A stretch of DNA of 64,000 nucleotides from an uncultured Thermomicrobiales bacterium (GCA_902806325.1 CADCWE010000031.1:16112-80111), one strand, 5' to 3'; shown: positions 12,083-56,766, numbered from the stretch's first letter. Program-made: numbers and translations. Notes: generated by a model from the sequence alone, not told the origin.

Positions 12083-12436
12083 TTACTGGATTGCGAGCAC
12101 GGTCTGGGCGTCGGACCAGCGGTCTTCCAGACGGTAGAAGGCGCGCTGCTCGACATCGAAGACGTGGACCATCACCGCCCCGTAGTCGAGCACAATCCAG
12201 CCCGAGGCGGCGTCGCCCTCGCTGCGCTCCGAGCGAATCCCCGCCTCGGTCAGCTTGTCGCCGATCTCGCGAGCGATCGCGCGGAGCTGGCGTTCGTTCT
12301 CTCCGGAGCAGATCACGAACAGGTCGGCGATCGGCGAGAGGGCCTGGATGTCGAGCACGACCGTGTCGGCGGCCGGTGTGTCGGCGATCACGTCGGCGAT
12401 ACGCAACGCGAGATCCCGGCTTTGGGGATCCGCCAT
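12083..12436 (-). CDS. rsfS: Ribosomal silencing factor RsfS
   Basis: 117 aa from ATG 12436, with 'VVLDIQALSPIADLFVICSGENERQLRAIA' and 'WIVLDYGAVMVHVF'. The upstream part of the longest ORF reads through tRNA genes. Confidence 0.9.
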   Translation of the reverse strand: MADPQSRDLALRIADVIADTPAADTVVLDIQALSPIADLFVICSGENERQLRAIAREIGDKLTEAGIRSERSEGDAASGWIVLDYGAVMVHVFDVEQRAFYRLEDRWSDAQTVLAIQ

Positions 12437-12595
12437 CGCGACGATAGACTCGCTGTCCTCGTCGTCCACGCCAGCGGCGGGACCGAGGAGGGCTTCTTCT
12501 TGGAGTGGCGAAATGGTCTCGGTATCGATGCCCGGCCTCCTCGGCTCCTTCGATACAGATGTACGAACACAACGAACGGACTTGCCGTCGCCCCA

Positions 12596-12601
12596 AGTAT
12601 A
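12596..12601 (-). promoter_or_regulatory. -10-like TATACT (minus strand) upstream of rsfS
   Basis: AGTATA on the plus strand, 160 nt upstream of the rsfS ATG and just downstream of tRNA-Met. Confidence 0.3.
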
Positions 12602-12636
12602 CGGCGGGGCAGGAGCGGCCACAAGGCCGGCCGCGG

Positions 12637-12708
12637 TGGGCCCGGCAGGGATCGAACCTGCGACCCTGGGGTTATGAGCCCCGTGCTCTGCCGCTGAGCT
12701 ACGGGCCC
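12637..12708 (-). tRNA. tRNA-Met (anticodon CAT); could also be a lysidine-modified tRNA-Ile2
   Basis: Reverse complement is GGGCCCGTAGCTCAGCGGCAGAGCACGGGGCTCATAACCCCAGGGTCGCAGGTTCGATCCCTGCCGGGCCCA. It folds as a cloverleaf with a GTTCGATCC T-arm and a paired 1:72 position, so it is not an initiator. CCA is not encoded. Confidence 0.9.
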
Positions 12709-12743
12709 GCGCGACGCCCGGTCGAAGAGCCGGCGGTCGGGCC

Positions 12744-12752
12744 ATGCTACCA
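12744..12752 (-). promoter_or_regulatory. Extended -10 element TGGTAGCAT (minus strand) upstream of tRNA-Met
   Basis: ATGCTACCA on the plus strand, 36 nt upstream of the mature tRNA 5' end. Confidence 0.45.
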
Positions 12753-12862
12753 CGCCGGCCCAATCCGTGGGCGAACCAGGACGACCGGTCTGGTCGGCGA
12801 GCGGTGCGCGCGACGGGGAACGAATTCCGCTCGCCGAGTAACAGCCGTCGACCGTTACCGGG

Positions 12863-12935
12863 AGCGGGGGACGGGACTCGAACCCGCGACAACCTGCTTG
12901 GAAGGCAGGCACTCTACCAACTGAGTTACCCCCGC
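12863..12935 (-). tRNA. tRNA-Gly (anticodon TCC)
   Basis: Reverse complement is GCGGGGGTAACTCAGTTGGTAGAGTGCCTGCCTTCCAAGCAGGTTGTCGCGGGTTCGAGTCCCGTCCCCCGCT. Anticodon loop is CTTCCAA. CCA is not encoded. Confidence 0.92.
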
Positions 12936-12962
12936 GAAACGACGGGCGGGCCGAACGGCCGG

Positions 12963-13036
12963 TCGGGGTGAGAGGATTCGAACCTCCGACCTCAGCGTCC
13001 CAAACGCCGCGCGCTGCCAGGCTGCGCCACACCCCG
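12963..13036 (-). tRNA. tRNA-Pro (anticodon TGG)
   Basis: Reverse complement is CGGGGTGTGGCGCAGCCTGGCAGCGCGCGGCGTTTGGGACGCTGAGGTCGGAGGTTCGAATCCTCTCACCCCGA. It lies 27 nt upstream of tRNA-Gly and is probably co-transcribed with it. CCA is not encoded. Confidence 0.92.
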
Positions 13037-13113: not shown

Positions 13114-15603
13114 TCAGACCGACCGGCGCAGGATCGCGACGTCCCCTTGGTCGAAGACCGTGCTCCATCCGGCGCCGGTGAGCGCGGAAAAGTCGCCCAC
13201 CTCGTAGGGAGGCGCGGGCGGAACGAGACAATCCCGGGAGACCCCCTCGCCGCGTTCGAGGTTCCCGACCACGAGCAGGGTGACGCCGTAGCGATCGAGC
13301 AACGCCGCGTCGGCCCGCTCGTACATCGTGGCGACGTCGGCCCGGCGGGGTTCGATCTGCGCCGCGAGTTCGGGCTGGCCGGAGCGCCACTGGCCTTCGT
13401 GGCCCGTCCAGCCGATCACGGTCGGCACCCCGGTGAACGTGGCGAAGCGGGCGAACAACGAGTTGTAGGTGCAGCGGCTGCTCGCTTCCAATAGCACGTC
13501 GTCCTCGTCGGCGTTGGCGCGCAGCCAGCGGATCGCCGCCGCCTCGTCGGGGAAGGCGTCTTCGACGTGCGCCAGCCCATCGAGGCCCCGCCAGCGGGCG
13601 AACTCGCCCGTCCAACGGTAGGAGGCGATGACCGGGTAGACCGACGCGGCGACAACCGCGACCGCGACCGCGCCGAACAGGGCCGGCCGAGCCGCCCACC
13701 GGGGGCGGGCTTCCCGCCACAGTTCGACGGTCGTCAGCGCCGTCGCGATCCCGAACAGCAGCCAAACCTGGTAGTACGCCTTGAACACCGTGTTCATCCG
13801 GCTGGCGCCGAAGCTGTCGCGGAGATAAAAAAACTCGCAGACCAGGATCAGACCGAAGCCGGCCGCGTACAGCATCGTTGCCGCGTTGCGCGGCGTCGGC
13901 GCGCGGTCGCGTTGCAACAACGCCAATGCTGCGACCAGGGGCACGCCGCAGAGCAGCACCACCGGCGCCGGCGTCGCCACGGCCACGCCGAAAAGGACGA
14001 GCGCTCCGATGCCGACCCTTTGGGCCCAGGCGCGACTCGGGCGACGGGGGACGAGCAAGCCGAGGCGGCCGCCGATCAGCCAGATCGCGAAGACGTACGG
14101 CAGCCCGAACATCGTCAAGAACTCGCCGGTCGAGGTCCGTTCCCACTCCACGGCGCCGATCGTCGTCAGGATCCGGGTCAGGACCGGGATGTCGCGCAAC
14201 CCCTCCGCCAACTGTTCGGGGCTGCCCGCCAAGAGCGGAACGAAGCGGACCCAGAACGGCGACCAGGCCAGGACCGAGACGGCAACCGTGCCGAGACCGG
14301 CCACGAGCCGGAACCCCGGCGCCAAGGTCGGCGATCCGAACCACAGCGCCGCCAGCGCGATCACGAGGAAGGTCGGGTAATCCCACGAGTTCAGCGGGTA
14401 GAGCGCGCCGAGCGCGACCGCGGCGATGCCGAAGTAGACCCAGGCGTCGCGCCCCGCGGCGAGACGCGCCCGGCGCGAGCCAAGTGTGGCGAAGGCGAAG
14501 GCGATGCTCAACGCCAGCGTGGTAAACGGCAGCGACATGACGTGGGGATGGTTGTCGCCGAGCAAGAAGCTGAAGAACGGGAATTCGTCGATCACGGTCC
14601 CGGGAACCCGTTCGTTGCCGACGATCCGGTAATCGACGATCACCCGGCTGGCGTTCCAGCCGATGCCTTCCCACCAGCCTTGGCGCCACGTTTCGCCGGG
14701 GTCGGCGAGGAACTCCCTGGCCCCGTACAGGTTCCCGCCAACCATGACCAGGAACGACGCGAGGAGCGCAGCAATGCCGGAGCGCCGGGCGGAGAGGCGT
14801 CCGCGGGAGGCGTTGAAGGCCAGCCCGCCGACGGCGACGACCGTGGTGCTGAACGTGGTGACCAGGGCCAGGTTATGGGCGACGGAGGAAGCCACCACGG
14901 CGAGCCGCCCGACGGTGCCGTGGATCAGGTAGCCGAGATAGTAGTAGTTGATCGGTTCGCCAGCGAACCACGGATCCGGAGGCGGCATCTCGACGGCGCG
15001 CTGACTGGCGGCCAGCAACGCGGCGTCCATCGGCTTCTCGGTGCTGTCCGCCGCCGGGGTGAAGCCGCGCAGCCAGAGATAGGCGAGGAAGACGCTCAGC
15101 GAGAGCAGCTCCGCGACCATGAGTCCGCGCAGCCACCCCTTGTCCGGCCGGCCACGGCTCAGGAGCAGCCCCCAGGAGAGCACCGAAAGCATCGCCATGG
15201 AGAGCCACAACCCGGCGGTGGAGTAGGGGACGGGCGACAGACTGCTGAGGAGCCAGAGCGGGAAAACGACGCCGAGCAGCGCCACCGCCCGCGCCGCGGA
15301 CGCGCCACGATCGGCCAGGTGGCCGAGCAGGAAATGGGCGATCGGCGCCAAGCCCCAGGTGGCGACAAGCAGCACCGCGTACCACCGAGCGGCTTCCGGA
15401 ACCCAGTTCACAGGCGCACCTGACGCGACGGCAAGCCGTTCATCCGCTACCGCCTGCGGCCACCCGGTAAACGGTTGTCGCGCCTTCCTGAAAAACAACC
15501 TCGAGCGCCGTGCCGACCATTTCGTCGAAGGCGGCGAGGCCATCGGCGGAGGCGTAAGGCGCGCCGTCGTCGCCCCGCCATTTGCGCTCGATGTCGCCGA
15601 CAA
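13114..15603 (-). CDS. Polytopic membrane protein of the DUF2298 / 'Chlor_Arch_YYY' type
   Basis: Up to 829 aa with many TM segments. Motifs: 'STEKPMDAALL', 'PPPDPWFAGEPINYYYLGY', 'IDEFPFFSFLLGDNHPH'. The longest-ORF start (15603) overlaps the upstream gene by 164 nt. A GTG at 15411, after CAGGTG, would remove the overlap. Confidence 0.8.
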   Translation of the reverse strand: MSATSSANGGATTARLTPPPMASPPSTKWSARRSRLFFRKARQPFTGWPQAVADERLAVASGAPVNWVPEAARWYAVLLVATWGLAPIAHFLLGHLADRGASAARAVALLGVVFPLWLLSSLSPVPYSTAGLWLSMAMLSVLSWGLLLSRGRPDKGWLRGLMVAELLSLSVFLAYLWLRGFTPAADSTEKPMDAALLAASQRAVEMPPPDPWFAGEPINYYYLGYLIHGTVGRLAVVASSVAHNLALVTTFSTTVVAVGGLAFNASRGRLSARRSGIAALLASFLVMVGGNLYGAREFLADPGETWRQGWWEGIGWNASRVIVDYRIVGNERVPGTVIDEFPFFSFLLGDNHPHVMSLPFTTLALSIAFAFATLGSRRARLAAGRDAWVYFGIAAVALGALYPLNSWDYPTFLVIALAALWFGSPTLAPGFRLVAGLGTVAVSVLAWSPFWVRFVPLLAGSPEQLAEGLRDIPVLTRILTTIGAVEWERTSTGEFLTMFGLPYVFAIWLIGGRLGLLVPRRPSRAWAQRVGIGALVLFGVAVATPAPVVLLCGVPLVAALALLQRDRAPTPRNAATMLYAAGFGLILVCEFFYLRDSFGASRMNTVFKAYYQVWLLFGIATALTTVELWREARPRWAARPALFGAVAVAVVAASVYPVIASYRWTGEFARWRGLDGLAHVEDAFPDEAAAIRWLRANADEDDVLLEASSRCTYNSLFARFATFTGVPTVIGWTGHEGQWRSGQPELAAQIEPRRADVATMYERADAALLDRYGVTLLVVGNLERGEGVSRDCLVPPAPPYEVGDFSALTGAGWSTVFDQGDVAILRRSV

Positions 15604-18600
15604 CGACGTACTCGACGTCGTACCGGCGCAGGATCGCCATCTTGTCGACCGGTTCGGTCGCGTTGTAGAGCGCCCGCAGATCTGCCACCCGCTCTTGGAG
15701 CCCTTCCGGGTAGCGCTGCTGGGAAAGGTGGTAGTCCCACCCGATGACGACCGGTAGGCCGGTGGCGATGGCGATCCGGCTCCCGTTGCCGCGGTACCCG
15801 CCGATGGCCGCTTCGGCGATGACGGGCGACCCGACGACGTGCTTGTTCAGCCAGTCGATCGCCGCCCGATCGCCGGCGAAGGAGATCTGTTCGGTGATCG
15901 CGGCGCCCGTGGCGTCGCGCCGCCCGGTCTCCACGGTCAGCGTGCCGTAGTCCATCCAATCGAGCCCATTCAGGGTTTGCGAGCCGAGGTCGTCGGTAAA
16001 GCGTTGGCGGAGACGGGGCCCGGTCGCGGTGACCGGGTAGACGAGGGACGCGGCCACGACCAGCACGGCAAGTCCCAGCCCCGCCCGGGACCATAGGGCG
16101 ACCGGCGACAGCGCGGTATGAGTACGGACCCAATCGTCATCGCGCGTCCCGGCGCCCAATCGCGACGCTGGGCCTACGATGCCAAGGGCGGCGGCGTCGG
16201 GTCGATCCCCACCCCCTCTGAGACGCGCGTCGGCGAGCATCCGGACGACGAAGGCGGCGGCGGCGATCGCCAGCAAAACCCATATCTGGTTGTAGAACTT
16301 GAATACCGTGTTCATCCGCTCGGCGTCGCCGCCGGCCAGGTTGTCGGCCACAAAGACGACCTCGATCCCGGCGGCCAGGGCGCAGGCGGTGCCGACCATC
16401 AGGCCGACGAATCGTTGGCCGATTCCCGTTCCAAAGACCCAGACGGCAACCGCCGCCGTCGCCATCGCCAGGGCGAGCGCCATGGTCGGCCGGTCCACCG
16501 CGAGCGCGGCACCGGCGGCGGTCAGCCCGGTTGCCAGGCCGCCGCGACCGGCCAGACGCGCCGTGCGGTCGTTTCGGCTGCCGATCGCGTACCAACCGGC
16601 CAATCCAAGAACGGCGGCGATCGTGGTGACGAATGCGGTCGTCAGGGCGGACGCGAGCGGCTCGTCGTTGCCCAGCACGGAGCCGCGGACGATTAGGATC
16701 GTCGCCAGCACCAGGAGGGGAAGGGCGGGATCGAGCAGCGGCGCGCCGGAGACGGAAATCCAGGCCACCAGCGCGGCGACGATCCCGATTCCCACCAGGA
16801 GCAGCAGTCCACCCAGGTGGTCCGCAAACTGCCAGAACGGCGACGGCACCCGCGTTCGCCCGAGTGACCCGAACAAGGCGACGTAGTGGGTGTGGAAGGG
16901 AAGGAATAACGCATAGGCCAGGGCGCCAAGTCCGGTCGCGAGACCGGCGGCAACGCCCAAGCGAACGGCCAACGGGCGGATCGCCGAGGTGGCCATAAAC
17001 AGGGCGGCGGCAGACAGGCCGAGGTACGTCGGCACGTCCCAAGCGTTCGTTGGCATCAACGACCCGACCGCAATCGCGAGTAGCACCAGACGCACGGTCA
17101 GGGCGGCGCCCAGGGCGGGGCGGCGGCGTGGCCGGCGCAACGCCAACGCCAATCCACGCGGATCGCGGGCCAGCGCATAGCCGATGGCGAGGACCAGGAC
17201 CGTGATTGGCAGCGCGACGACGTGAGCGTGGAGATCGGCGTAAAGGCCGGTGAAGAACGGGAACTCCGTGATGGTGTTATTGCCGAGGATCAGTCGGGTC
17301 GGATCCCAGGTGTAGTACCCGAACCCATCGCCGACGTCAGCCGGGCGGCGGAGGTACTGCACCAATCCGTCGAGGTTGCCGATCCCGACCAGGAAGAGCA
17401 CGCCGAGCGCGCCGGCCGGGATGGCGTAGCGGGCGCGGTGCACGAGATCCCGGCCAATGGTGGCGGCGAGGGCGAAACCGGTGCTGGCCAGCAACGCGAG
17501 CATGGTCGGCTGGGCGAGGTTGAAGGCGATCTCGCTCGGGATGCCGGTCACCTTGGCGCAGAATGCGACCAGATACAGACCGTAATAGTAGTAGTTGATA
17601 TACCCGCCGGCGTACCACGGATCGAGCGGCGGGAAGTGGGCGGAGCGGAGGATGCCGTTGAGGTGGGCGAATTCCATCGGCTTTTCGCCGCCCCAGATCG
17701 GGTGCCAGGAGTCCGGGTTAAGGTAGCGGAACAGGAGGAAAAGCGCGAAGACGAGCCAGAACGCCGCCTCGGTCCCGAGCGCGGTTCGCCGTTGTGCCGG
17801 GCGTACGGTCCATAGTTTCGTGCGTCGACGCCACCGTTCGCGGGCCGCCCAGCCGACAGCCGCCAGAACGAGGAGCGCCGCGGCGGCCCAAACCGCGCGG
17901 AAGGCGAAGAGGGGCAGGCTGGCCCCGATCCAGACGACATATCCCCCAAGAGTAAGAGAGATCAGTCTCGCAAACCCCCAGCCGGCATCGGCAAACCGGC
18001 CAAAGACCAATCCGGCGAGCGGCCAGCCGACGATTTGGAGGGCAGCAAGCAGGATCAGCCAGGCGCCTAGGGCGACCCAGGAATTGGAAGTCCAGGCGGC
18101 GCTCCACCGGGCGTCCGCGACCACCGGCAGTTCGCCGACCGGCTCATCGAGTTGGAGTTTGGTCTCCGGAGCGTGACGGGTGGGGCTGACCGGCGCCGCC
18201 GTCGCGTCCGCGAACAGCGCCGCGAAGGTTTCGCGATCGACCAGCCTTTCTTTCGCGAAGATGAGGACCCGGGGGTGGTCATAGTTGATGAACGATTCGT
18301 CGGCGTCGTGGTCGGAGATCGAGAACGGCCCGAGACTGGGGTAGCGGGTGAACTCCTTCTCTAACCGAAAGCCGAGTTCTCCGCTCTCCAAGAGGTCGTA
18401 GAATCGGGTCTGGACCGGGTAACGCCACGGGGAGCGGGGAACCGAGTCCATGACCCGGTTTGATGAAACCACGTAGTAGTCCACCTGGTCCAACCCGCGG
18501 TAGAGCATCTCGGTCGCCTGGGCGTCTCCGGTCGCCTCCAAGGCGGCGGCGAGTCGGTCGAGCGACGGGGCGATGCGTTCCGCCGGGTCAACCGTCGCCT

Positions 18601-20329
18601 CGTCGCGCAGGGCACGGGCGAGGGCGCGAGCGGCGTCCCCGAGTTCGTAATTGGGCGGCAGGAGCAGGAGATCTCCGGTGGCGTGGTCGAGGGCGTCGGC
18701 CAGTCGCTCGCGGTCTGGTTGGGACCAACGCCCGGTTTGGGTCGTCAGTTCGCGCAGCGAGGCGGCGGCGGATCGGTAGTCCAGGCGGTCGAGGGACTCG
18801 CCGGCCGATGCCGTGGCGTCGGTTGCGGCGAAGGCGGCGCCGATCGTCCGGAGATCGGCCGGGACGGGACGGTCGGCGTAGATATCGAACCAAACAGTCT
18901 CGAATTGGAAGTCCGCGCCGCTGAAGCCGGGTCCGAGGTTGGACGGCAGCGGGTCGTCCCAATACTCGCCGCTGAGGACGCTGCCCGGCGGCAGATTGGC
19001 GAACATCCAGCGGCTCGCCGCGAGGCGGGTGTTCTCGTGCGCGTAGATGGTCGAGAACGCGGCGGTCCAGAGTCCGGCCCCCGCCAGTAGCACCGCGCCT
19101 GCAAGCCCGGCCAGGCGCGGTCCACGCCAGCGCGCGAGGGCACCCCAGATCCCGTCGAGCGCCAACCCGGCCGCGACCGCCAAGACCGGGGTGAGCGGCG
19201 CCAGGTAGCGGAGGAACTTGGTTTCCGGCAGCGCGATCACCAGCGTGTAACCGAGGAACCAGGCCAACAGCAGCGCGCGGCCACCAGTCGGGTGACGCCA
19301 GAAGCGGTAGGCGAGCCACGGCAATCCGAGCAGCGCCAGGACGCCGGCGACCGGACCGAATCCGAAGCGGACCAACTGCTCCGCCTGGTACAGCATCGGC
19401 GTGGTGCCGACGTACTGCCGGGTGTAGGGGACGTCGATGATGCCGCGGACGATGTTGGCCTGCTCTTCGAGCGAGCGCCGGTACGGCCCCGGCGACAGCA
19501 GCGCGTACGGCTCGAACAGCGCGAAGCAGCCCAGCGCGGCGACACCGGCGACGGCGATCCGCTCCGGCGCCGCGGTCAACGCCGCGAGCGGGGTCGCCCC
19601 AGCCCGCCAGCGCCGCCAGACGTCGTAGACGACCGCGACGGCGACCACGCCACCCAGCGTGAAGACGCTGCCCTTGGTCGCCATCGCCAGCCCGAAGGCG
19701 GCGCCGGTGGCGGCGAACCAGCGCCGTTGCCCGCCCTCGGCGGCGCGGATCGCCCAGAGCAAGCAAAGGGCGACGAAAAACGTCAGCCAGGCGTCGGTGG
19801 TGAAGAAATGGGCGAGCTGGATCGACATCGGCGCCAGTGCGGCAACGACGGCGCCGAGCAGGCCAACCCGGCGGTTGAAGACGCGGGTGCCGATCAGGTA
19901 GACGATCAGGACCGTGCCGGTGTCGAGCAGGGCCGAGATCGGTCGCCCGATCAGGTAAATGTTGTCGTACCAGTGCCAGTCCCGGTCGCTGAACCAGGTC
20001 AGCACCTCCGCCACCGCGTCGACGACCAGCAGCGGCAGGGCGCCGTAGGCGAACCCCCGCGGGCGACCCTCGGCGTCGGGCGTGCGCGGGTTCAGGCCGC
20101 TCTTGTCCGGATCGAGGAGGTTAGAGAGCGGCGCGCCGTCGAGGAAGATGCGGGAGTAGGTGACGTCGGCGACGTGGCGCTCGTCGGGGTGCAAGTACCG
20201 GCCTTCGTCCCAGGTCAACCCGAACAAGCGCAGCGCCAGCGCGGCAACCAGCACCGCCCCGAGCGCGACGTGGTGGGGCCGCCGCGCGAGCGAGACGAGG
20301 ACGGTGCGGAATGCGATCATGGCGCCCAT
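15440..20329 (-). CDS. Giant membrane protein (~1629 aa): N-terminal GT-C-like multi-TM module fused to a DUF2298 / 'Chlor_Arch_YYY' module
   Basis: Start taken at ATG 20329 ('[12 protein letters not shown]...'), followed by 'RYLHPDERH' after TM1. The C-terminal half has '[40 protein letters not shown]' and '[16 protein letters not shown]'. The 150 codons upstream in the longest ORF are Arg/Pro junk that runs antisense into fmt. Confidence 0.8.
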   Translation of the reverse strand: [1629 protein letters not shown]

Positions 20330-20445
20330 TCTAGCCACCAGGCGACGCGCGGTCGAGGCGTCCCGCCGCGCCGGAGGTCGCCGATCGGTCCCATCGTCGC
20401 CGCACGCGGGCGAACCCCCCGGCCAACAACGCAGGAACGAGAAGC

Positions 20446-21459
20446 ATGACAGAAACGGCGGGCACCATCGAATCGCGGTTGAAGATCGCCTTTTTTGGCA
20501 CCCCCGCGTTCGCCGTCCCGGCGTTGGAACGCTTGGCGGGGGACGAGCGGTTCGTTGTTGCCCTGGTGGTGACCCAACCGGACCGACCGGCGGGCCGCGG
20601 GCGCTCGCTGGTCGCCTCGCCGGTGAAACGGGCGGCGGAGCAGCTCGGATTAACCGTTTACCAGCCGGACGGCCTGCGCGCTGCCGCGGGGCGCGAACCG
20701 CTGGCGGTGCTGGAGGCCGACCTCTTCGTCGTTGCCGCCTACGGCCTGATCTTCGGCCGGAGAACGTTGGCGTTGCCACGGCTGGGCTGTCTCAACCTCC
20801 ACGCTTCGGTGTTGCCCCGCCACCGGGGGGCCAGCCCGATCGCGGCGGCGATCCTGAGCGGCGACGGGAGAACTGGCGTTTCGCTGATGGCGATGGAGCC
20901 GGGGTTGGACAACGGTCCCGTGATCGCGGTACGCCAGACGGTCATCACCGGGGACGACACGACCGCGTCGTTGACCGAGCGGCTGGCGGAGATCGGCGCC
21001 CGATTGGCGACGGAGGCGATCCCGGAGTTCGCGGCGGGCCGGCTGCCGGCGGTTTCCCAACCGGTCGTCGGCGTCACCGTCACCCGCCCGCTGACCAAGG
21101 CGGACGGGTGGCTGGATTGGACGCGATCGGCGAAGGACCTCGAGCGCCAGGTACGGGCGATGTGGCCGTGGCCGCGGGCGTGGACGACGCTGCGCGACGT
21201 GCCGTTGCAAATCCACCGGGCAACGGTGGTTGACCGGACCGGGGCCGACGAACCCGGCTCGATCCAGCTCCTCGGGGGCACCGTTTCGGTTCGCTGCGGA
21301 CAGGGCGCCTTGCGGCTCGACTCGGTGCAGCGCGCGGGCGGGCGGCCCGTTTCCGGACCCGCGTTGATTGCTGGCGGTCAGGTAAACGCGGACGATCGGA
21401 TGGGTGATGGCACCGCGCCCGCCGCCCCTGCCGAACCGATCGTCCAAGAGGTGAAATAA
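20446..21459 (+). CDS. fmt: Methionyl-tRNA formyltransferase
   Basis: 337 aa with 'KIAFFGTPAFAVP' and 'LNLHASVLPRHRGASPI'. Confidence 0.93.
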   Translation: MTETAGTIESRLKIAFFGTPAFAVPALERLAGDERFVVALVVTQPDRPAGRGRSLVASPVKRAAEQLGLTVYQPDGLRAAAGREPLAVLEADLFVVAAYGLIFGRRTLALPRLGCLNLHASVLPRHRGASPIAAAILSGDGRTGVSLMAMEPGLDNGPVIAVRQTVITGDDTTASLTERLAEIGARLATEAIPEFAAGRLPAVSQPVVGVTVTRPLTKADGWLDWTRSAKDLERQVRAMWPWPRAWTTLRDVPLQIHRATVVDRTGADEPGSIQLLGGTVSVRCGQGALRLDSVQRAGGRPVSGPALIAGGQVNADDRMGDGTAPAAPAEPIVQEVK

Positions 21460-21866
21460 CCCCGCGCCAAGCAGGAGAGCGCCCCCTCGCCCGCGGTGTT
21501 TCGATGCCGCCGGGTAGAATGCGGATAACTATGGTTGAGCGAACATCCCCCGGCGGTGGTTGATACCGGACATAATACCGAATTGATCGGTAGCCGTTTG
21601 TCATAACCTGACCGTACTCGGACTTGGATGCCTTGCGCGAGAGCGGGAGCCCGCCGATTCCGCCCCGGCGTTGGCCGGCGCCGGGCGACACCATTGCGCC
21701 AGAGCCTATAACAGCGGTCGACACGCGGCGACTTCCGCGAAGCCAGGCGCACGCCGGTCCTGCGTCCAGTACGCCACACGAAACGTTTCGAGCGCCATCC
21801 GCGACCCGTCTCGGCCGACCGTCGGTCATGCTGCACCGAGGGCGGCGGTCCGGTTGCGTTAACGGG

Positions 21867-21895
21867 CCGGCGCCGGCCACAACGGCCGGCGCCGG
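21867..21895. terminator. Hairpin: 12-bp perfect stem CCGGCGCCGGCC/GGCCGGCGCCGG, loop ACAAC
   Basis: Lies 47 nt beyond the stop of the minus-strand sortase-like gene, at the 3' end of the non-coding gap. Confidence 0.45.
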
Positions 21896-21941
21896 GTTGC
21901 GATGGTATGGCGACGAGGCGACCATCGTCCAAAGGCCGAAC

Positions 21942-22958
21942 CTACTCCTCCGACTGGAGGAACTCCTCCGCCACGTACCCCTCGTTGCCCTCTTCATCGG
22001 CAACGTTCAACCAGACGCGTTCGCCATCGTTGACCGCGTTGCCGATCACCGTGAGGCGGGCGCCTTGCGGCAGCACCGCCAGCACCTCGGCATCGGTCGA
22101 GGCGTCGACGCGCAGGTTGACCTCCGCCTCGGTCACGGTGACGAATCCGCCTTCTTCGAACCCGGACTCGACGACATCGTCCGCGATATCGTCCTGGGCG
22201 GCGTCCTCGGCCGCCTCGTCGTCCGCGTCGACGGCCACGGCGGAGTCATCGCCGCGGCTGATTGCCACCCCGACGGCACGAACGACGGTCCGCGACAGGT
22301 ACTCCCCGGTCGCCGCGTCGAACTCGCCGCCGCAGGTGATCAGGGTCAAGGCCTCGCCGTCGGTCGGGCCGACGATCTCCTGGATCTGCTCCGGCGTGAT
22401 CGTCGCCATTTCGTAGGTCTGCATCCAGTCGACCTCGTAGGTCAACGTGGTGCCGTCGCCGGCGGAGACGACGATCTCGTCGCCGGCGACCACGTTGCGC
22501 AGGTTGTAGAGCACGGCCGGTCCGACGTCCCAGTAGTCGACGTGCCCGGCCATCACGGCGTTGCCGCCCTGTCCCGGCTTGGCGGTCTGCTCGTACCACG
22601 AGACGACGAACGGGCCGGTCGGGTTCTGCATCACGCCGTCGACAATCTGCACCGTTTCGACCGGCGCGTCAACGAACGCCGCGGGGATCGCTATTCCGAG
22701 CGGCAGAACCCCATCGAGCTGGATCGCCGGAGCCGGGTTAAGGCCGATCGGCCCCGGCCGGAGCCCGTCGGTGGTCGGAACCTCGCCGATGCCGTCGGTT
22801 AACAGGCTCGCGCTCGCCGCCAGCACGCTCGACAGCGACAACGCGGCACACAGCAGCGCCATGGCGGCGAGACGGCGCCCGTGGGCGGCGAACCGGCGCG
22901 CGGAGGCTTTCGGACGGTCGGTGGTCGGGCTGGGTACCATGCCTTGCTCCAGGCCCAC
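21942..22958 (-). CDS. Sortase-family transpeptidase with acidic linker and C-terminal SH3b-like domain
   Basis: Signal anchor 'LAAMALLCAALSLSSVLAA'. Catalytic triad context 'AVMAGHVDYW', 'ALTLITCGG' and 'LSRTVVRAV'. An acidic linker 'DADDEAAEDAAQDDIADD' is followed by 'VNLRVDASTDAEVLAVLPQGARLTVIG...WLNV...GYVAEEFL'. Confidence 0.75.
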   Translation of the reverse strand: MGLEQGMVPSPTTDRPKASARRFAAHGRRLAAMALLCAALSLSSVLAASASLLTDGIGEVPTTDGLRPGPIGLNPAPAIQLDGVLPLGIAIPAAFVDAPVETVQIVDGVMQNPTGPFVVSWYEQTAKPGQGGNAVMAGHVDYWDVGPAVLYNLRNVVAGDEIVVSAGDGTTLTYEVDWMQTYEMATITPEQIQEIVGPTDGEALTLITCGGEFDAATGEYLSRTVVRAVGVAISRGDDSAVAVDADDEAAEDAAQDDIADDVVESGFEEGGFVTVTEAEVNLRVDASTDAEVLAVLPQGARLTVIGNAVNDGERVWLNVADEEGNEGYVAEEFLQSEE

Positions 22959-23106
22959 GGTGGGGCGGTTTGACAGCGAGCATCGCCGCTTGACAGGACG
23001 TGATGTGCGTGCGAATAGCGTAGCGCCTGCGGTGGCTAGGGCACAAGATCCCGGATCGGCCAGTTTTCCACCGCTTCGGCGCGGAGGGTCTCGGCCGGTC
23101 GCGCAC

Positions 23107-23112
23107 TATACT
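23107..23112 (+). promoter_or_regulatory. -10-like TATACT upstream of the spermidine-synthase-like gene
   Basis: AT-rich hexamer 60 nt before ATG 23172. No convincing -35. Confidence 0.3.
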
Positions 23113-23171
23113 GAACGCCTCGCCCGCCAACGCCGTTTCGCCTTCGCCGCGAAGGAACCCCCTCCCAAACC

Positions 23172-24782
23172 ATGGTCGCTACCCCCTCTCCGGTCGAAGC
23201 CTTCGCGTCCCAAACCGGCGCTGTGGCGCGCGTTACCGCTCCCGCCCCGTTCTTGCGCCCGATCGTCTTCTTCGGCGGGGTGAGTTCGATCGGGATCGAA
23301 CTATCGGCGTCGCGTTTGATCGCCCCCTACTTTGGCGGCTCGACGTTTATCTGGGCCAACCTGATCGGCCTAACGTTGGCCTTTCTCTCCATCGGCTACG
23401 CCATCGGCGGCCGGGTCGCCGACCGCTACCCCGACCCGCGGGTGCTCTACACCGCGACGGCGGTCGCCGCCTTCGCCGCCGGTCTGATCCCGGTTCTGGC
23501 GCGGCCGATCTTCTCCGCGTCGTTGGGGGCGTTCGACCGCTTGGCCGTCGGCGCCTTCTACGGTTCACTGCTCGGGGTGCTGGTCTTATTCGCCGTCCCG
23601 ATCACGCTGCTCGGGTTCGTCACCCCATACGCAATCCGGCTGCGCTTGGATGCGATCGCCCACGCCGGCCACACCGCCGGCGGCATCTACGCCTTGTCCA
23701 CCGTTGGCTCGATCGCGGGCAGTTTTCTGCCGGTGATCGTCCTGATCCCGCTCTTCGGCACCGCGCGGACCTTCCTCATCCTGAGCTTGGCGCTGTTGAT
23801 TCCGTCGGTGCTGGGCCTGATCGCGGTCGGCGCCCGCGGCCGGGCGGCGGTGGCGGTCGGGCTGATGGTCGCGCTCGGGGTCGTGGCGACCATCGCCGCC
23901 GAGGGCAGGATTAAGCCGCCGGATCGGGGCCGTCTCCTCTACGAGACCGAATCCGAGTACAACTACATCCAGGTCCTGGAAGATGACGGCCGCACCCTGC
24001 TCGCGCTCAACGAGGGCCATGCCGTTCACTCCATCTACGACCCGGAGCGCCTGCTGACCGGCGGCCCCTGGGACTACTTCATGGCCGGACCGCTGTTCAC
24101 GCCGGATGCCGGACCGGACGCAGTTGACACCGCGCTCCTGATCGGTCTGGCCGCGGGCACGGTGGCACGGCAACTGGAATCCGCCTACCCGGGGATCACG
24201 ATCGACGGCGTCGAGATCGACCCAGAGATCGCCCGCGTCGGCCGGGAGTATTTTGCGATGGAGTCGCCGAACCTCGACGTCATCGTCGAAGACGGGCGGT
24301 ACTTCTTGCGGACAACGACGGAGCGCTACGATCTGATCGGCGTTGACGCCTACCGCCAGCCGTACATCCCGTTCCAACTCACGTCTCGAGAATTTTTCCA
24401 AGAGGTCGCCGACCGCCTCACCCCGGGTGGCGTCGCGGTGGTCAACGTCGGCCGCACCCGCACCGACTACCGGCTGGTGGACGTGATCGCCTCGACGATG
24501 CGCGATGTCTACCCGACGGTCTTCGCGATCGACGTCGAGGGGTACACCAACACGATCGTCGTCGGAACCAACGCGCCGTCGCCGCCCGGCGCCTTTGCCA
24601 AGAACGCGGCCCGGTTGGCTCCCGATTCGGAACTCGGTCAGATCGCGGCAACCGCGCTGGCCACCGGCAACATCCGGGAGGTCTCGCCCGGTGGGCGCGT
24701 GTTTACCGACGACCACGCGCCGGTCGAACTGGTGGTGGACCAGATCATCCTCGACGTGGCGCGCCAGGGAGACGACCCGTGA
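23172..24782 (+). CDS. Fused polytopic membrane domain / spermidine synthase-like methyltransferase-fold protein
   Basis: 536 aa. The N-terminal ~230 aa are multi-TM. The C-terminal part has 'LLIGLAAGTVARQL', 'IDGVEIDPEI', 'YDLIGVDAY' and 'TPGGVAVVNV', an aminopropyltransferase-like fold. Confidence 0.75.
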   Translation: MVATPSPVEAFASQTGAVARVTAPAPFLRPIVFFGGVSSIGIELSASRLIAPYFGGSTFIWANLIGLTLAFLSIGYAIGGRVADRYPDPRVLYTATAVAAFAAGLIPVLARPIFSASLGAFDRLAVGAFYGSLLGVLVLFAVPITLLGFVTPYAIRLRLDAIAHAGHTAGGIYALSTVGSIAGSFLPVIVLIPLFGTARTFLILSLALLIPSVLGLIAVGARGRAAVAVGLMVALGVVATIAAEGRIKPPDRGRLLYETESEYNYIQVLEDDGRTLLALNEGHAVHSIYDPERLLTGGPWDYFMAGPLFTPDAGPDAVDTALLIGLAAGTVARQLESAYPGITIDGVEIDPEIARVGREYFAMESPNLDVIVEDGRYFLRTTTERYDLIGVDAYRQPYIPFQLTSREFFQEVADRLTPGGVAVVNVGRTRTDYRLVDVIASTMRDVYPTVFAIDVEGYTNTIVVGTNAPSPPGAFAKNAARLAPDSELGQIAATALATGNIREVSPGGRVFTDDHAPVELVVDQIILDVARQGDDP

Positions 24783-25657
24783 CCGAAACATCCGGCGTGA
24801 TGGTGCTCGACCCGGCGTTTCCCACTCCACGGGATGGCTCCGCGCCAGAGCCGCACTGTCAAGGGCCACCGCGGCCGCTCAAAAGCGCCCTGCTCGACGC
24901 GGTGCCCGGCGTCGTCCACGGGATCACGGGACGGGTGCCCGGACTCGGCGCGGCGGACGGCAACGTCGCCTACAGCGCGCCGCGTGATCGGCAAGACGCC
25001 TGGTTGATGCGACAACGCTGGTGCGCTGCGCTCGGACTCGACGCCGCCCGCTTGGCGGTCTTGGGCCAGATCCACGGCGCGGCGGTGCGGAAGGTGGGCG
25101 CCGATGACGCCGGGTCTGGCGCACGACCGGCCACCGATCCGGCGGGTTACGGCGATGCCCTGATCTCGGACGAACCCGGCGTCGTCCTGATGACGTTGCA
25201 CGCCGACTGTTTGCCCCTGCTGCTGGTGGACCCGGATCGCCCGGCCGTGGCCGCGGTCCACGCCGGGTGGCGAGGTACGGTCGCCGACATCGCCGGAGCG
25301 ACCGTTGCGGGGATGCGGCGCGCCTTCGGCAGCGATCCAGCGCGCTTGCTCGGCTACATCGGCCCGACGATCGGACCGGACTGCTACGAGGTCGGTCCGG
25401 AGGTGGCGGAGGCGTGGCTTGCCGTGGCGCCGGACGGCCAGGCGTCACTGCGGGACACCGGCTCCCGGCCGTCGTTCGATCTCCGGCGGGCGAATCGTCA
25501 CCTGCTGGCGGCGGCCGGACTCGAACCCGCCCGGATCGAGGTCAGTTCCATCTGTACCCGCCACGACGGCGACGCCTGGTTCTCGCACCGCGGTCAGGGT
25601 CCGGCGACGGGCCGCTTCGGGGCCATCATCGCCCTGGCGGACCGAGACGGGGACTGA
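24779..25657 (+). CDS. pgeF: Peptidoglycan editing factor PgeF / YfiH-family (DUF152) protein
   Basis: 'QIHGAAV', 'HADCLPLLL', 'HAGWRGT' and 'CTRHDGDAWFSHR'. GTGA overlap with the upstream stop. Confidence 0.85.
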   Translation: MTETSGVMVLDPAFPTPRDGSAPEPHCQGPPRPLKSALLDAVPGVVHGITGRVPGLGAADGNVAYSAPRDRQDAWLMRQRWCAALGLDAARLAVLGQIHGAAVRKVGADDAGSGARPATDPAGYGDALISDEPGVVLMTLHADCLPLLLVDPDRPAVAAVHAGWRGTVADIAGATVAGMRRAFGSDPARLLGYIGPTIGPDCYEVGPEVAEAWLAVAPDGQASLRDTGSRPSFDLRRANRHLLAAAGLEPARIEVSSICTRHDGDAWFSHRGQGPATGRFGAIIALADRDGD

Positions 25658-25658
25658 G

Positions 25659-26342
25659 ATGGCGCTGGCCCAACGCATCGCCAAGGTGCACGAACGGATC
25701 GCCCGCGCCACCGAGCGGGCCGGACGCGACCCGGCGTCGGTAACCCTCGTCGCGGTCTCGAAGACGGTCGACCGGGAGTCGGTGGACGAAGCCTACCGGC
25801 ACGGGCTGCGCCATTTCGGCGAGAATCGAGTGCTCGACGCGGTCGAGAAGTACGCCACGCCGCTGCCAGAAGACGCCTCCCTCCACCTGATCGGCCAACT
25901 CCAAACCAACAAGGCCAAACCGGCCGCCGGTCTCTTCGACCTCGTCGAGTCGGTGGATCGCCCGTCGCTGGTCGGTGCGCTGGCCAAGGAGGGCATGCGG
26001 CTCGGGCGGCCGATTCCGATCTTGCTCCAGGTCAACATCTCCGGGGAAGAGCAAAAAGCGGGCTGCGACGAGGCCGCGGCCGACATGCTGGCTGATTCGA
26101 TTCTGACCGAACCGTCGCTCGCGCTGCGCGGGCTGATGACGATCGCGCCGCTGGTCGCCGATCCCGAGCACGTGCGGCCCGTGTTCCGCGGTCTGCGCGA
26201 GTTGCGTGACCGGCTCCAGATTCGCCATCCAGAATCGAGGCTCGACATCCTTTCGATGGGGATGTCGAACGACTACCCGGTCGCGATCGAGGAAGGCGCG
26301 ACCCACGTTCGGGTGGGCCGCGCCGTGTTCGAACGCAACTAA
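25659..26342 (+). CDS. yggS: PLP-binding homeostasis protein YggS family
   Basis: ATG 25659 lies 1 nt after the pgeF stop. Motifs: 'LVAVSKT', 'HFGENRV', 'HLIGQLQTNK', 'LSMGMSNDY'. Confidence 0.9.
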   Translation: MALAQRIAKVHERIARATERAGRDPASVTLVAVSKTVDRESVDEAYRHGLRHFGENRVLDAVEKYATPLPEDASLHLIGQLQTNKAKPAAGLFDLVESVDRPSLVGALAKEGMRLGRPIPILLQVNISGEEQKAGCDEAAADMLADSILTEPSLALRGLMTIAPLVADPEHVRPVFRGLRELRDRLQIRHPESRLDILSMGMSNDYPVAIEEGATHVRVGRAVFERN

Positions 26343-26359
26343 CAGGCCAAGCGGCGCGC

Positions 26360-29209
26360 CTACGGGGTCGGAGTAGGCGTTCCCGCACCGGGCGTGGCTT
26401 CCGCCAGCCGGACCAAAATCGCCTCGATCGCGTCCTGCTCCCGGCCGTAGGCGGTCCAGTCGCCGCTCTCGAGGGCGGCTTGGCCGCGGGTGAAGGCAGC
26501 GAGCGCCTGCTGGGCGAGGTCGGCGTCCGCGCCGGTCGGTGGGGCGTCTTGGGGCTGCGTCGCCGGGTCGATGGCGCCCGGGTCGGGAGCAGCTTCGAGC
26601 GGACCGGCGGCGTCGGCCGACCCGCTGGCGATGGCTTGGAGCGCTTCCTCCAGCGTCGGACGCATCACGACGCGCTCGCTTGTGGCGGCGATCACCCGGC
26701 GCAGTTCCGGCAGGCCGGCGCCGCTGGCGGTGGCGCGCAGGTAGAGCGGTTGGACGTAGAGCAACCCGTCGCCGATCGGGATCACCAGCATATTGCCCCG
26801 GATCACTTCCGAACCGGCCTGATCCCACAGCGTGATCTGGGACGAAATCTCCGGTTCTTGGCTGATCCGGGCGGCGATCTGCTCCGGTCCGAACACGGTC
26901 ACTTGGCGCGGGAACCCATAAACGACGAGTCCATGGGAGCCGTCGGGCGCCGTCCGCGCCGCCATCCAAGCGGTCATGTTTTGTCGCTCTTGCTGACCAC
27001 CGGGGGTAAACGGCAGGATCAAAGCGAACTCGGACTTCTGCTCGCCGGGGAGGGTCAAGGAGACGTAGTACGGCTCCATGCGGAGCGTTTCCTCGCCTTG
27101 GCGCTCGCGGGCGATCGCCCACCGGTCGTCGCTGTTGTAGAAGGCCTGGGCATCGGTGACGTGGTAGGCGGCAAACACCTCAGTTTGGACGTCGAACAGC
27201 AGCTCCGGGTAGCGGAAGTGGGCGGCGATCGTCGGCGACACCTCGGCGACGGGGCGGAACAGGTCCGGGTAGATGTCGGCGTAGGCGTCGGCGATCGGGT
27301 CGGCGACGTTGGTGCGGTAGAAGGTGGTCGTGCCGTCGTAGGCGTCGATCGTCACCTTGACGCTGTTGCGGACGTAGTTAATGCCCCGGGTCGGCGTCGC
27401 GTCGGGGTAGCGGCTGCTGGTGGTGTAGGCGTCGATCACCCAGACCAGGCGACCGTCGGCGATCACCAGGTACGGATCCGGATCGTAGTCGAGGAACGGG
27501 GCGATGGCGCGGACGCGCTCGCCGATCTCGCGCCGCAGCAGCAACTTCGAGTCGTCGGTCAGGGCGCCGCTGAGGAGGACGTTGCGGTCGCGCAGGAACA
27601 CGGCGGCGACCAGCTTGGTCCCGAAGTTGGACAGTTCGATCGCCCCCCGGCCCGCGCCCTCGTAGCGGGCCGGCTCATTGGCCAGGCCGGTGAACTCTTC
27701 TTGCTCGGTGTCGACGATCACCCAATCCTCGGCGCTCTCGCCGAAGTAGATCTCCGGCCGGGTCACGACCAGCGGGTCGTTCTCGACCGGGGGACCGGTG
27801 CGGGTCGGCGGGATATCGGCGAGCAGAAAGGGAGGCAAGCCCCGGTTGTCGACCTGGCTGACCGGGCTGACGACCAGGCCGTAGCCGTGGGTGTAAGCGA
27901 GGTGGCGGTTGTTCCAGTTCTTGGCGTTTTCCGGCAATCCGGCGAGGTTGAGTTCTCGGGCCGAGAGCAGCACCTGGGTCAACTCGCCGCCCAGGTCGTA
28001 ACGGTCGATGTCGACGTCCCGGAACGCGTAGTACGGGGCAAAGGCTTGCAATTGCTGGTAGGTCGGTCCGATCACTCGGTAGTCCCAAAGTCGGATGTTG
28101 TCGACGGTGGTCGGTTGGGCCTGGATCGATCCAGGGGCCGGTTCTCCCTGCCCGGAAAGGTCGCGCACCGTCACGGCGTCCAATCCGTACGCCTGGCGGG
28201 TGAAGGCGATGTTGTCCTCGATGAACGGTCGCTCGCGGCGCAACTCGCTCGGATCGACCACGGTCCGCTGCACCGCCGCCGGGTAGATCACGCCGAGCAA
28301 GACACCAAAGGCCGCCCAGGCGATCAGGGCGCCCGCCAGCAGGCGCAACCGGCGCACGTAGGCGTTGACCACCAGCAGGACGGCGGCGACGGTCGTGACC
28401 GCCGCCAGGGCGTAGTTCGCCCACCGCTGGGCGTTGACGTCCGTGTAGCCGGCGCCGAAGACGAAGCCCCGGGTCGAGAACAGCAACTCGTAGTTGGCGA
28501 GCACGTACCCGGCGGCAAAGGTCAGCAAGACCCCGCCCAGCAGCGCGAAGACGTGGATCCGCATCTGATCGGGCACCGACCGCCAGTTGGCCGGTCGCAT
28601 CCCCAGCCGGAGCGCGTAGATGAGGGCGACGCCGATCGCGGTCGCGATCAGGAGGGCGGTCAGGCCGCCGCGCACCGCCTGCAGCACCGGCAGCGTGAAC
28701 ATATAAAAGCCGACATCGCGCCCAAAAATCGGGTCATCGATCCCGAACGACCCCCCGTTCCGGAACAGCAACCACTGCTCCCAGCGCGCGGCGCCGGACG
28801 ACCCGGCGGACAACGCGACGAGCGCCGTCGCCGCCAAGAGCAGCCAAACCAGCAACCGCTCGCCCAGCGGCGCGGCGCCGCCTACCGGTCGGGCGCGACG
28901 GGTCCGGCGGAGCGCAAAGACCAGATTGGCGAGGAAGAACCCGCCCGCCAACACGCCAAAGAGCGCGAACAGCGTCACCTGCGAGACGTACCGGGTGACC
29001 AGCACCGAACGGTAGCCGACCGAGCCGAACCACCACCAGTTGACCCAAAACGCGGCGGTGGCGAAGACGACCACGAACAGCACGACGAAGAACGCCGCCG
29101 TGATTAACATCCGCCGGGTGGAGGGGGAAACCCCGAACGACGGCAATGATGGGCGCGGCGGCACGCCCGGATTTGGGCGCCGGTTTTGGTTGGGCGGTAG
29201 GTTAAACAC
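26360..29209 (-). CDS. UPF0182-family large membrane protein
   Basis: 949 aa. The N-terminal ~300 aa are multi-TM ('FWVNWWWFGSVGY'), followed by a large soluble region with 'IRLWDYRV', 'NMTAWMAART' and 'LYVQPLYLRA'. Confidence 0.8.
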   Translation of the reverse strand: MFNLPPNQNRRPNPGVPPRPSLPSFGVSPSTRRMLITAAFFVVLFVVVFATAAFWVNWWWFGSVGYRSVLVTRYVSQVTLFALFGVLAGGFFLANLVFALRRTRRARPVGGAAPLGERLLVWLLLAATALVALSAGSSGAARWEQWLLFRNGGSFGIDDPIFGRDVGFYMFTLPVLQAVRGGLTALLIATAIGVALIYALRLGMRPANWRSVPDQMRIHVFALLGGVLLTFAAGYVLANYELLFSTRGFVFGAGYTDVNAQRWANYALAAVTTVAAVLLVVNAYVRRLRLLAGALIAWAAFGVLLGVIYPAAVQRTVVDPSELRRERPFIEDNIAFTRQAYGLDAVTVRDLSGQGEPAPGSIQAQPTTVDNIRLWDYRVIGPTYQQLQAFAPYYAFRDVDIDRYDLGGELTQVLLSARELNLAGLPENAKNWNNRHLAYTHGYGLVVSPVSQVDNRGLPPFLLADIPPTRTGPPVENDPLVVTRPEIYFGESAEDWVIVDTEQEEFTGLANEPARYEGAGRGAIELSNFGTKLVAAVFLRDRNVLLSGALTDDSKLLLRREIGERVRAIAPFLDYDPDPYLVIADGRLVWVIDAYTTSSRYPDATPTRGINYVRNSVKVTIDAYDGTTTFYRTNVADPIADAYADIYPDLFRPVAEVSPTIAAHFRYPELLFDVQTEVFAAYHVTDAQAFYNSDDRWAIARERQGEETLRMEPYYVSLTLPGEQKSEFALILPFTPGGQQERQNMTAWMAARTAPDGSHGLVVYGFPRQVTVFGPEQIAARISQEPEISSQITLWDQAGSEVIRGNMLVIPIGDGLLYVQPLYLRATASGAGLPELRRVIAATSERVVMRPTLEEALQAIASGSADAAGPLEAAPDPGAIDPATQPQDAPPTGADADLAQQALAAFTRGQAALESGDWTAYGREQDAIEAILVRLAEATPGAGTPTPTP

Positions 29210-56761: not shown

Positions 56762-56766
56762 CCGGC

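Follow-up and report, generated by a model that had tools for sequence, protein, structure and literature searches.

Two adjacent genes of a Thermomicrobiales bacterium encode DUF2298/YYY membrane proteins with three modules of predicted GT-C fold

Positions 13,114 to 20,329 of a 64,000-nucleotide stretch of DNA from an uncultured Thermomicrobiales bacterium (GCA_902806325.1 CADCWE010000031.1:16112-80111; the whole stretch is called the window below) raise the question of what two adjacent genes for very large membrane proteins, both carrying the YYY motif of the DUF2298 family, do together. A previous, sequence-only reading proposed that they form a paired, lipid-carrier-dependent glycosyl transferase machine acting at the envelope, and this proposal is now supported by predicted folds, membrane topology, the conserved pairing of the genes and the gene context of archaeal relatives, and nothing that the reading had named as a refutation was observed. 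The pair is probably an extracytoplasmic glycosyltransferase assembly that uses polyprenyl-phosphate sugars and comprises a PMT_2-type module and a large-type DUF2298 module, joined in the larger protein, together with a small-type DUF2298 module encoded separately; more tentatively, the three modules would form one complex or act in sequence. The genes themselves are ordinary members of a catalogued family.

A scan of open reading frames (ORFs) confirmed that 13114-20329 is filled by two minus-strand genes of the same direction, as had been claimed for these 7.2 kb, and the GC content at third codon positions of both ORFs (0.83-0.88) is of the coding type, typical for genes in this window of 68-70% GC. 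The large gene runs from an ATG at 20329 to a TGA at 15440, with GGTGG 5 nt upstream of the ATG, and the product of about 1629 amino acids (aa) starting with 'MGAMIAF' that had been announced has a counterpart of 1629 aa and 100% identity on a metagenome contig (P0121). Read from its longest ORF, the small gene would begin at TTG 15603 and overlap the upstream stop at 15440, as described before, but this start inside the large gene is merely mechanical and was rejected. The likelier start is GTG 15411 ('MNWVPEAARWY'), the first in-frame start codon past the stop of the large gene, because it is preceded by AGGTG at 5-nt spacing, coincides with position 1 of the family profile, and agrees with P0001, a 765-aa protein 99% identical to the small one. 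The earlier description of the genes as having no spacer is essentially right, although this start leaves 28 nt between them. The parts of the locus are as follows:

15440..20329, minus strand: large gene, 1629 aa, with a PMT_2-like module of predicted GT-C fold, a soluble domain and a DUF2298/YYY module (from ORF, start and family hits)
19049..20329, minus strand: N-terminal module (N-module), aa 1-427, 11 predicted transmembrane helices, N-terminus inside, predicted GT-C fold, PMT_2 family (AlphaFold2, Foldseek, topology)
20180..20191, minus strand: HPDE (aa 47-50), situated in the N-module's first extracytoplasmic loop, candidate catalytic Asp-Glu, invariant in 52 homologues
18089..19048, minus strand: soluble middle domain, aa 428-747 (320 aa), predicted extracytoplasmic (alignment, AlphaFold2, topology)
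18530..18862, minus strand: lineage-specific helical insertion of ~110 aa (aa ~490-600) inside the middle domain (occupancy, AlphaFold2)
15443..18088, minus strand: large-type DUF2298/YYY module, aa 748-1629 (family hits, alignment, motifs)
15412..15439, minus strand: 28-nt intergenic spacer with the AGGTG Shine-Dalgarno-like site (start assignment)
13114..15411, minus strand: small gene for a protein of 765 aa, a DUF2298/YYY module of the small type standing alone, 16 transmembrane helices predicted (family hits, P0001, AlphaFold2, topology)

The assignment of both proteins to DUF2298/Chlor_Arch_YYY stands well above the curated cut-offs. Against DUF2298 (PF10060, cut-off 27.8) the large protein scores 343 bits (E-value 3.5e-102) and the small one 348 bits (E 1.5e-103), and against TIGR03662 (Chlor_Arch_YYY, cut-off 300.25) the scores are 451 and 484 bits, respectively. 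Both are full members of the family, with the same YYY motif and the same Chloroflexota/Archaea distribution, which had been stated before and which the relatives found here fit. The five motifs previously read in the two proteins are present in both and in the order claimed (small/large: EKPMD/EKPME, PPPDPWFAG/PPLDPWYAG, INYYYLG/INYYYYG, DEFPFFS/TEFPFFT and HPH/HAH), and an identity of 30-34% between the two DUF2298 modules indicates that they are old paralogues. Conservation was followed over 117 modules of the family, which comprise small-type and large-type ones, those of other Chloroflexota and those of archaea; 22 residues are invariant in them, and both window copies retain all 22. Eighteen of these lie in the membrane region and outer loops (E125, D146, Y156, Y157, G160, N227, E276, P278, D286, H288, H290, N341, R538, N540, T541, F543, K544 and W550) and four in the C-terminal domain (G661, R689, G716 and E719); Y156, Y157 and G160 belong to the YYYxG pattern that both proteins carry. 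The small-type homologues additionally share two invariant cysteines, C647 and C728. The motifs and domains concerned are located as follows:

17672-17686, minus strand: EKPME, large-type module
17615-17632, minus strand: PPLDPW, large-type module
17582-17599, minus strand: INYYYY, large-type module
17252-17266, minus strand: EFPFF, large-type module
17222-17230, minus strand: HAH, large-type module
17036-17047, minus strand: NAWD, large-type module
16298-16318, minus strand: RMNTVFK, large-type module
14938..15039, minus strand: long outer loop after the fourth transmembrane helix of the small protein, with EKPMD (15025-15039), PPPDPW (14968-14985) and INYYY (14938-14952)
14542..14586, minus strand: block EFPFF...GDNHPH, placed in the small protein's second long outer loop, with E276, D286, H288 and H290 invariant; candidate metal or substrate site
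13780..13800, minus strand: RMNTVFK block in an outer loop of the small protein, with R538, N540, T541, F543 and K544 invariant; candidate phosphate-binding site
13117..13626, minus strand: C-terminal domain (aa 596-765) of the small protein, of alpha/beta type and predicted to be extracytoplasmic (AlphaFold2, topology)

The family is large: in a library of representatives at 50% identity, 8030 entries match it at E<=1e-3, and proteins of up to 2744 aa among them contain two to four matched stretches. Its description as a family of no experimentally assigned function agrees with the literature searched under DUF2298, Chlor_Arch_YYY, PF10060, TIGR03662, TIGR03663 and IPR018746, where no functional study was found.

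At the N-terminus of the large protein, the PMT_2/GT39-like model that had been expected was indeed found, with two families above their cut-offs. PMT_2 (PF13231) matches aa 131-251 with 52.4 bits (gathering threshold 26.1, E 9e-14), and a partial match to PMT (PF02366) reaches 33.2 bits (cut-off 22.7, E 5e-8), both together spanning aa 128-251. As reported from the sequence, 'LHPDERH' follows directly on the first transmembrane helix, and its D49-E50 pair is invariant in 52 homologues. On the other hand, the boundaries had to be redrawn: the N-terminal membrane module, put before at ~560 aa, comprises aa 1-427 with 11 transmembrane helices according to the AlphaFold2 model and the alignment-averaged topology, and the hydrophilic segment of ~270 aa became a middle domain of 320 aa (aa 428-747), the DUF2298 module starting near aa 748. 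This middle domain contains 23 Lys/Arg residues against 44 Asp/Glu, and its ~110-aa insertion, all-helical in the model, has an alignment occupancy of only ~0.35 over 52 homologous fusions, where it marks a subset of ~1600 aa. No significant relation was obtained with hhalign between the middle domain and the C-terminal domain of the small protein. As a separate observation, the sequence 'LDWMDYG' stands shortly beyond the last transmembrane helix of the large-type DUF2298 module; neither it nor the 'EYWDD' of the middle domain fits the motif of oligosaccharyltransferases (OST), and it is recorded as a lead only.

Structure prediction led to an assignment that extends beyond the N-module. The AlphaFold2 model of the small protein was built with 55 homologues (predicted local distance difference test, pLDDT, 89; predicted template-modelling score, pTM, 0.93), and that of the large protein covers aa 1-800 (pLDDT 91). 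When the small-protein model was compared with the Protein Data Bank (PDB) by Foldseek, the ten best matches were all GT-C proteins with a probability of 1.00, including AftA (8if8; E 1.7e-6, TMt 0.51), DPY19, AglB, STT3 of yeast and human, ArnT, Pmt4 and Pmt1/2; ALG3 follows at rank 13 with a probability of 0.87, and beyond the GT-C matches come unrelated transporters at probabilities <=0.2. For the N-module model, the 35 matches at E<1e-3 are likewise all GT-C, among them STT3 (2.7e-9), AglB, Pmt4 (TMt 0.59, root-mean-square deviation 5.9), ArnT, ALG12, PglB, DPY19, AftA and PIG-U. The GT-C fold that had been expected for the N-module is thus predicted for the DUF2298 module itself as well, an assignment of the modules that these models make very probable, and with both module types so predicted the operon would encode three GT-C-fold modules. 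The link between DUF2298 and GT-C is one that structure prediction brings out and that no sequence method detected.

Membrane topology was derived from hydropathy and from Lys/Arg counts averaged over alignments (the positive-inside rule), using the 52 homologues in the case of the N-module, and gave ~43 transmembrane helices across the three modules. The loop containing HPDE (aa 38-129, 92 residues, net acidic) is predicted outside, between a Lys/Arg-rich N-terminus and a Lys/Arg-rich turn joining the second and third helices, so the earlier placement of an acidic motif in the first extracytoplasmic loop agrees with the alignment. The 16 helices of the small protein leave both termini outside and every short Lys/Arg-rich loop inside, and its outer loops contain EKPMD, PPPDPW, INYYY, EFPFF, D286-x-H288-x-H290, NSWD and RMNTVFK. 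Since the middle domain of the large protein lies outside, the first helix of the following DUF2298 module must run from outside to inside, as it does in the small protein, whose N-out topology came from a separate prediction. Altogether, the invariant motifs of all modules are predicted on the outer face of the membrane. GT-C enzymes have an EL1 loop with two juxtamembrane helices; in the small-protein model, E125 and D129 open a long outer loop that also contains two short helices (aa 126-138 and 159-171), and in this the EKPMD loop appears to resemble EL1. With acidic, histidine and basic residues brought together in its outer loops, the module shows the pattern to be expected of an active site for phospho-sugar donors, in which the individual residues would have putative roles.

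The pairing of the two genes was surveyed with one genome per species, covering 80 loci, by means of purpose-built hidden Markov models, which represented the N-module, the middle domain and each type of DUF2298 module. The fusion gene lies directly upstream of a small-type gene in 40 of the 66 informative Chloroflexota loci, that is, those with sufficient upstream sequence, or in 40-48 when borderline cases are admitted (six more ended by the contig end and two without a detectable N-module). Over 49 related loci, the median distance from stop to start is ~5 nt, 46 of them having 60 nt or less, and stop and start codons often overlap. Moreover, a small gene is found downstream of four of five independently sampled fusion genes. 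The pair occurs in Thermomicrobiales, Sphaerobacter, Nitrolancea, Thermomicrobium, Thermalbibacter, Ktedonobacterales, Anaerolineae, Roseiflexaceae and Thermoflexus, in the last of which a 3-kb gap separates the genes. It is therefore conserved as neighbours in most relatives, as a joint system would suggest, the pairing being frequent and not obligatory. Larger fusions than that of the window were also seen, in one Roseiflexaceae locus (L068 3-10415) and two of Anaerolineae (L067 and L074). In these groups the PMT_2-like module, the middle domain and two copies of DUF2298 are joined in one ORF at least 2590 aa long, with a third DUF2298 copy in the gene after it.

Further indications come from archaeal relatives. 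Of six loci, four have a gene resembling GT2 synthases of dolichyl-phosphate (Dol-P) hexoses directly against the DUF2298 gene, and in a fifth such a gene is found ~2 kb upstream. Three of the four abutting genes are fused to a flippase-like domain: in L077, L078 and L080 (Methanocellales, Methanosarcinaceae), a GT2 + LPG_synthase_TM/TIGR00374 fusion stands directly upstream of DUF2298, overlapping its start by 4 nt in L077, and the GT2 domains match DPhHxTase, AglJ, ArnC, PgfS and PpgS, which are dolichyl- or undecaprenyl-phosphate sugar transferases. In Methanoperedens there is an overlap of 10 nt between the GT2 gene and the start of DUF2298. GT2 and/or LPG_synthase_TM genes also occur near several Chloroflexota loci outside Thermomicrobiales. 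In another archaeal locus (L088 2589-8909, JAIYSY010000049.1), the order is an S-layer gene (PF07752 and PGF-CTERM), a 395-aa gene without Pfam hit, DUF2298 after a 3-nt spacer, and a methyltransferase gene, which hints that archaeal DUF2298 proteins may act on S-layer glycoproteins.

What we infer for the modules, namely transferase activity, the type of donor and the roles of individual residues, may be outlined as follows. Each module would bind a sugar or glycan on polyprenyl phosphate that has already been flipped to the outer leaflet, and would transfer it to an acceptor in the envelope, either protein or glycan. Catalysis would depend on invariant acidic residues of the long outer loops: in the PMT_2 module these would be D49/E50, in DUF2298 E125, D146, E276 and D286 together with H288/H290. 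R538/K544 may hold the lipid phosphate.

Such a scheme has well-known counterparts. The N-module shares with PMT_2/PMT enzymes (GT39, and the ArnT-like GT83) the family match, an invariant Asp-Glu in the first outer loop and fold matches to Pmt4 and ArnT; it differs from PMT/GT39 in that neither a MIR domain nor PMT_4TMC gave a Pfam match at E<=0.1 in the large protein, and in its fusion to a second GT-C-fold module. The closest structural match of the DUF2298 model is AftA, the mycobacterial priming arabinofuranosyltransferase, a polytopic GT-C protein of envelope polysaccharide synthesis (PMC10265970). In comparison with AftA, DUF2298 has 11-13% identity and no detectable sequence homology, ~16 transmembrane helices, three helices ahead of the acidic loop and other motifs. 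Three-component glycosylation, in which a polyprenyl-phosphate-sugar synthase and a flippase serve a GT-C enzyme (Gtr, Arn, GT136), is an established pathway (PMC11127046). The archaeal coupling of DUF2298 to GT2 synthase-like genes, with a flippase-like fusion in three loci, follows the same logic, although the flippase-like domain is of the LPG_synthase_TM type and the one described in that source of the MATE type. The window and other Thermomicrobiales loci depart from these systems in that synthase and flippase are not adjacent and the GT-C component is present three times.

Several observations weigh against this reading. At the level of sequence, nothing ties DUF2298 to a GT-C family: a search of PDB chains with both sequences and a 56-sequence profile gave no meaningful relative, and a Pfam scan of 56 small-type members at E<=5 gave no GT-C family. 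The TM-scores in Foldseek are modest (0.3-0.5), predicted models being matched at the level of the fold. The acidic loop of DUF2298 comes after the fourth transmembrane helix instead of the first, so three extra N-terminal helices must be assumed. When the N-module profile was aligned with that of DUF2298 by hhalign, the result was not significant, with a weak local match of 22% probability at the junction of the last transmembrane helices and the soluble domain, so that any relation between the module types would not go beyond the fold. No GT2 synthase, flippase-like or GtrA gene was found in the 64-kb window, and no GT2 synthase or flippase-like gene was seen adjoining any Thermomicrobiales pair. 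In the survey, 24 loci contain a solo DUF2298 gene (small-type or undifferentiated), and one sampled fusion gene is without small partner; as solo small-type genes in unrelated contexts occur within Thermomicrobiales too, pairing is the rule and no obligation. Finally, some proteins of GT-C fold are not transferases, for instance PIG-U and possibly Agl23.

This last point opens the way to other explanations. One of them, unlikely but the best placed, is that one or more of the modules translocate or chaperone lipid-linked sugars as flippases or scramblases instead of transferring them. A precedent exists in Agl23 of Haloarcula, a PMT-like protein that, once purified, translocated lipid-linked Man5GlcNAc2 in liposomes and was proposed as a hexose-phosphate-dolichol flippase (PMC11182771). 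The N-module shows a weak local match (aa 129-248) to the Agl23 model TIGR03663, and the Thermomicrobiales loci have no separate flippase-like gene; the score of 25.8 bits, however, falls far below the cut-off of 126.25 and excludes membership. TIGR03663 genes presumably often co-occur with TIGR03662 genes, an association that the fusion would echo. Against translocation speak also the invariant charged residues, which are grouped in outer loops and not along a transmembrane path, and the archaeal DUF2298 genes that already adjoin a flippase-like domain, next to which a second flippase would be redundant.

It is also improbable that the PMT_2 module alone is catalytic, for instance as a bacterial protein O-mannosyltransferase or ArnT-like enzyme, with DUF2298 serving as a non-catalytic scaffold or substrate-binding part in the manner of PIG-U in glycosylphosphatidylinositol (GPI) transamidase. 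PMT_2 and PMT scores above their cut-offs, the invariant Asp-Glu motif, the presence of PIG-U among the fold matches of the N-module, which illustrates that non-catalytic GT-C folds exist, and the lack of sequence similarity between DUF2298 and any characterised glycosyltransferase are all consistent with it. Yet many Chloroflexota, and the archaea too, have DUF2298 by itself, directly coupled to GT2 synthase-like genes and lacking a PMT_2 partner, and its 22 invariant residues, mostly charged or aromatic and in outer loops, form a pattern to be expected of an active site and not of a scaffold.

An OST- or ligase-like enzyme, which would take an already assembled glycan en bloc from its polyprenyl-diphosphate carrier and attach it to protein or polymer, in place of single sugars delivered by monophosphate carriers, appears less probable still. 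The best E-values of the N-module are those of STT3 and AglB, both of which the DUF2298 model also matches, and W457-D458 of 'EYWDD' (18956-18961) are invariant in the 52 homologues ~30 residues past the last transmembrane helix of the N-module, which we take to be roughly the position of WWDYG in OST; the S-layer gene near one archaeal DUF2298 locus would fit as well. In the large protein, however, neither the Pfam model of STT3 nor the WWDYG motif was found, only EYWDD. Moreover, the GT2 genes adjoining archaeal DUF2298 resemble synthases of monophosphate-linked sugars (Dol-P-hexose, undecaprenyl-phosphate Ara4FN and AglJ types), and the best fold match of DUF2298 is AftA, whose donor we assume to be monophosphate-linked. 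That the two genes are independent paralogues, neighbours without common function, is very improbable in spite of the 24 solo loci and the fusion gene without partner, since several classes of Chloroflexota keep the order of fusion gene and small gene, the gaps rarely exceeding 60 nt, and Roseiflexaceae and Anaerolineae fuse further DUF2298 copies into one polypeptide.

The surroundings of the probable glycosyltransferase pair in the window bear on its role, and the features in question are these:

20330..20445: divergent intergenic region of 116 bp between the large gene and fmt (from the gene starts)
20446-21459, plus strand: fmt, divergent neighbour of the fusion gene
21942-22958, minus strand: gene for a sortase with a C-terminal SH3_3 domain, between fmt and the spermine-synthase-like gene
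23172-24782: spermine-synthase-like membrane protein, 536 aa, neighbour of the sortase gene
12961-13036, 12861-12935 and 12635-12708, minus strand: tRNA-Pro(TGG), tRNA-Gly(TCC) and tRNA-Met(CAT), directly downstream of the small gene
48336-50048 and 55226-56896: genes for the lipid II flippase MurJ and a MurE-like Mur ligase, elsewhere in the window

The fusion gene has fmt as its divergent neighbour in 27 of 34 informative loci, and in two others (L037 and L041) fmt follows the small gene instead. A strongly conserved block of fmt, the spermine-synthase-like membrane protein, Cu-oxidase_4 (PgeF-like) and a YggS-like gene stands beside the fusion gene both in the window (20446-29209) and in L001, L002 and L084, with UPF0182 next after it in the window, L001 and L084. 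As fmt directly adjoins the spermine-synthase-like gene in these three loci, the sortase gene looks like a local insertion. The genes of the window are of the housekeeping kind, including pur and gcv genes, der, plsY, a galE-like epimerase gene, glyA, rsfS and the three tRNA genes. Such a conserved core synteny linked to fmt suggests a housekeeping envelope function of the locus in Thermomicrobiales and not a variable surface-glycan island. The galE gene, mentioned before for its proximity, was rejected as a partner: three tRNA genes, rsfS and glyA on the opposite strand intervene, it belongs to a separate transcription unit, and the same housekeeping order is found in a relative. A 214-aa ORF at 12388-13032 was likewise rejected as a gene, being a read-through of the tRNA genes. 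The MurJ and Mur ligase genes predict that the organism makes lipid-carried peptidoglycan precursors.

Taken further, the analysis points to a wider picture that is possible though rather doubtful, in which DUF2298/YYY would be an unrecognised GT-C family, dissimilar in sequence to every GT-C family of CAZy, with catalytic motifs of its own and three extra N-terminal helices, joined to a PMT_2 module in assembly lines of three or four modules in Chloroflexota and taking part in a Dol-P-sugar pathway in archaea. The Chloroflexota proteins might then build, stepwise and at the outer face of the membrane, a core envelope glycan or a glycoprotein modification of these unusual monoderms, and the single-module form of methanogens and Methanoperedens might be the last member of the Dol-P-sugar pathway, possibly in S-layer glycosylation. 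Relative to what is catalogued in the tools and literature searched, the new elements would be a GT-C-like DUF2298 that has distinct motifs and three additional helices, the arrays of three to four modules, and archaeal members that complete a gene set of synthase, flippase and transferase.

The placement in GT-C would provide a concrete functional hypothesis for a large DUF2298 family, because the invariant acidic, histidine and basic residues face outward and archaeal members stand in a synthase-flippase context. The cell wall chemistry of Thermomicrobiales and other Chloroflexota is atypical and poorly understood, and the finding would bear on envelope biogenesis in these bacteria as well as on surface glycosylation in methanogens and archaea of the anaerobic methanotrophic (ANME) type. 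To our knowledge, no characterised GT-C enzyme has this build of two modules plus a paralogue. This unusual architecture, which unites two predicted GT-C modules in one polypeptide beside a paralogue that looks obligate and reaches as many as four modules in Roseiflexaceae and Anaerolineae, could illuminate how sequential steps of extracytoplasmic glycosylation are organised.

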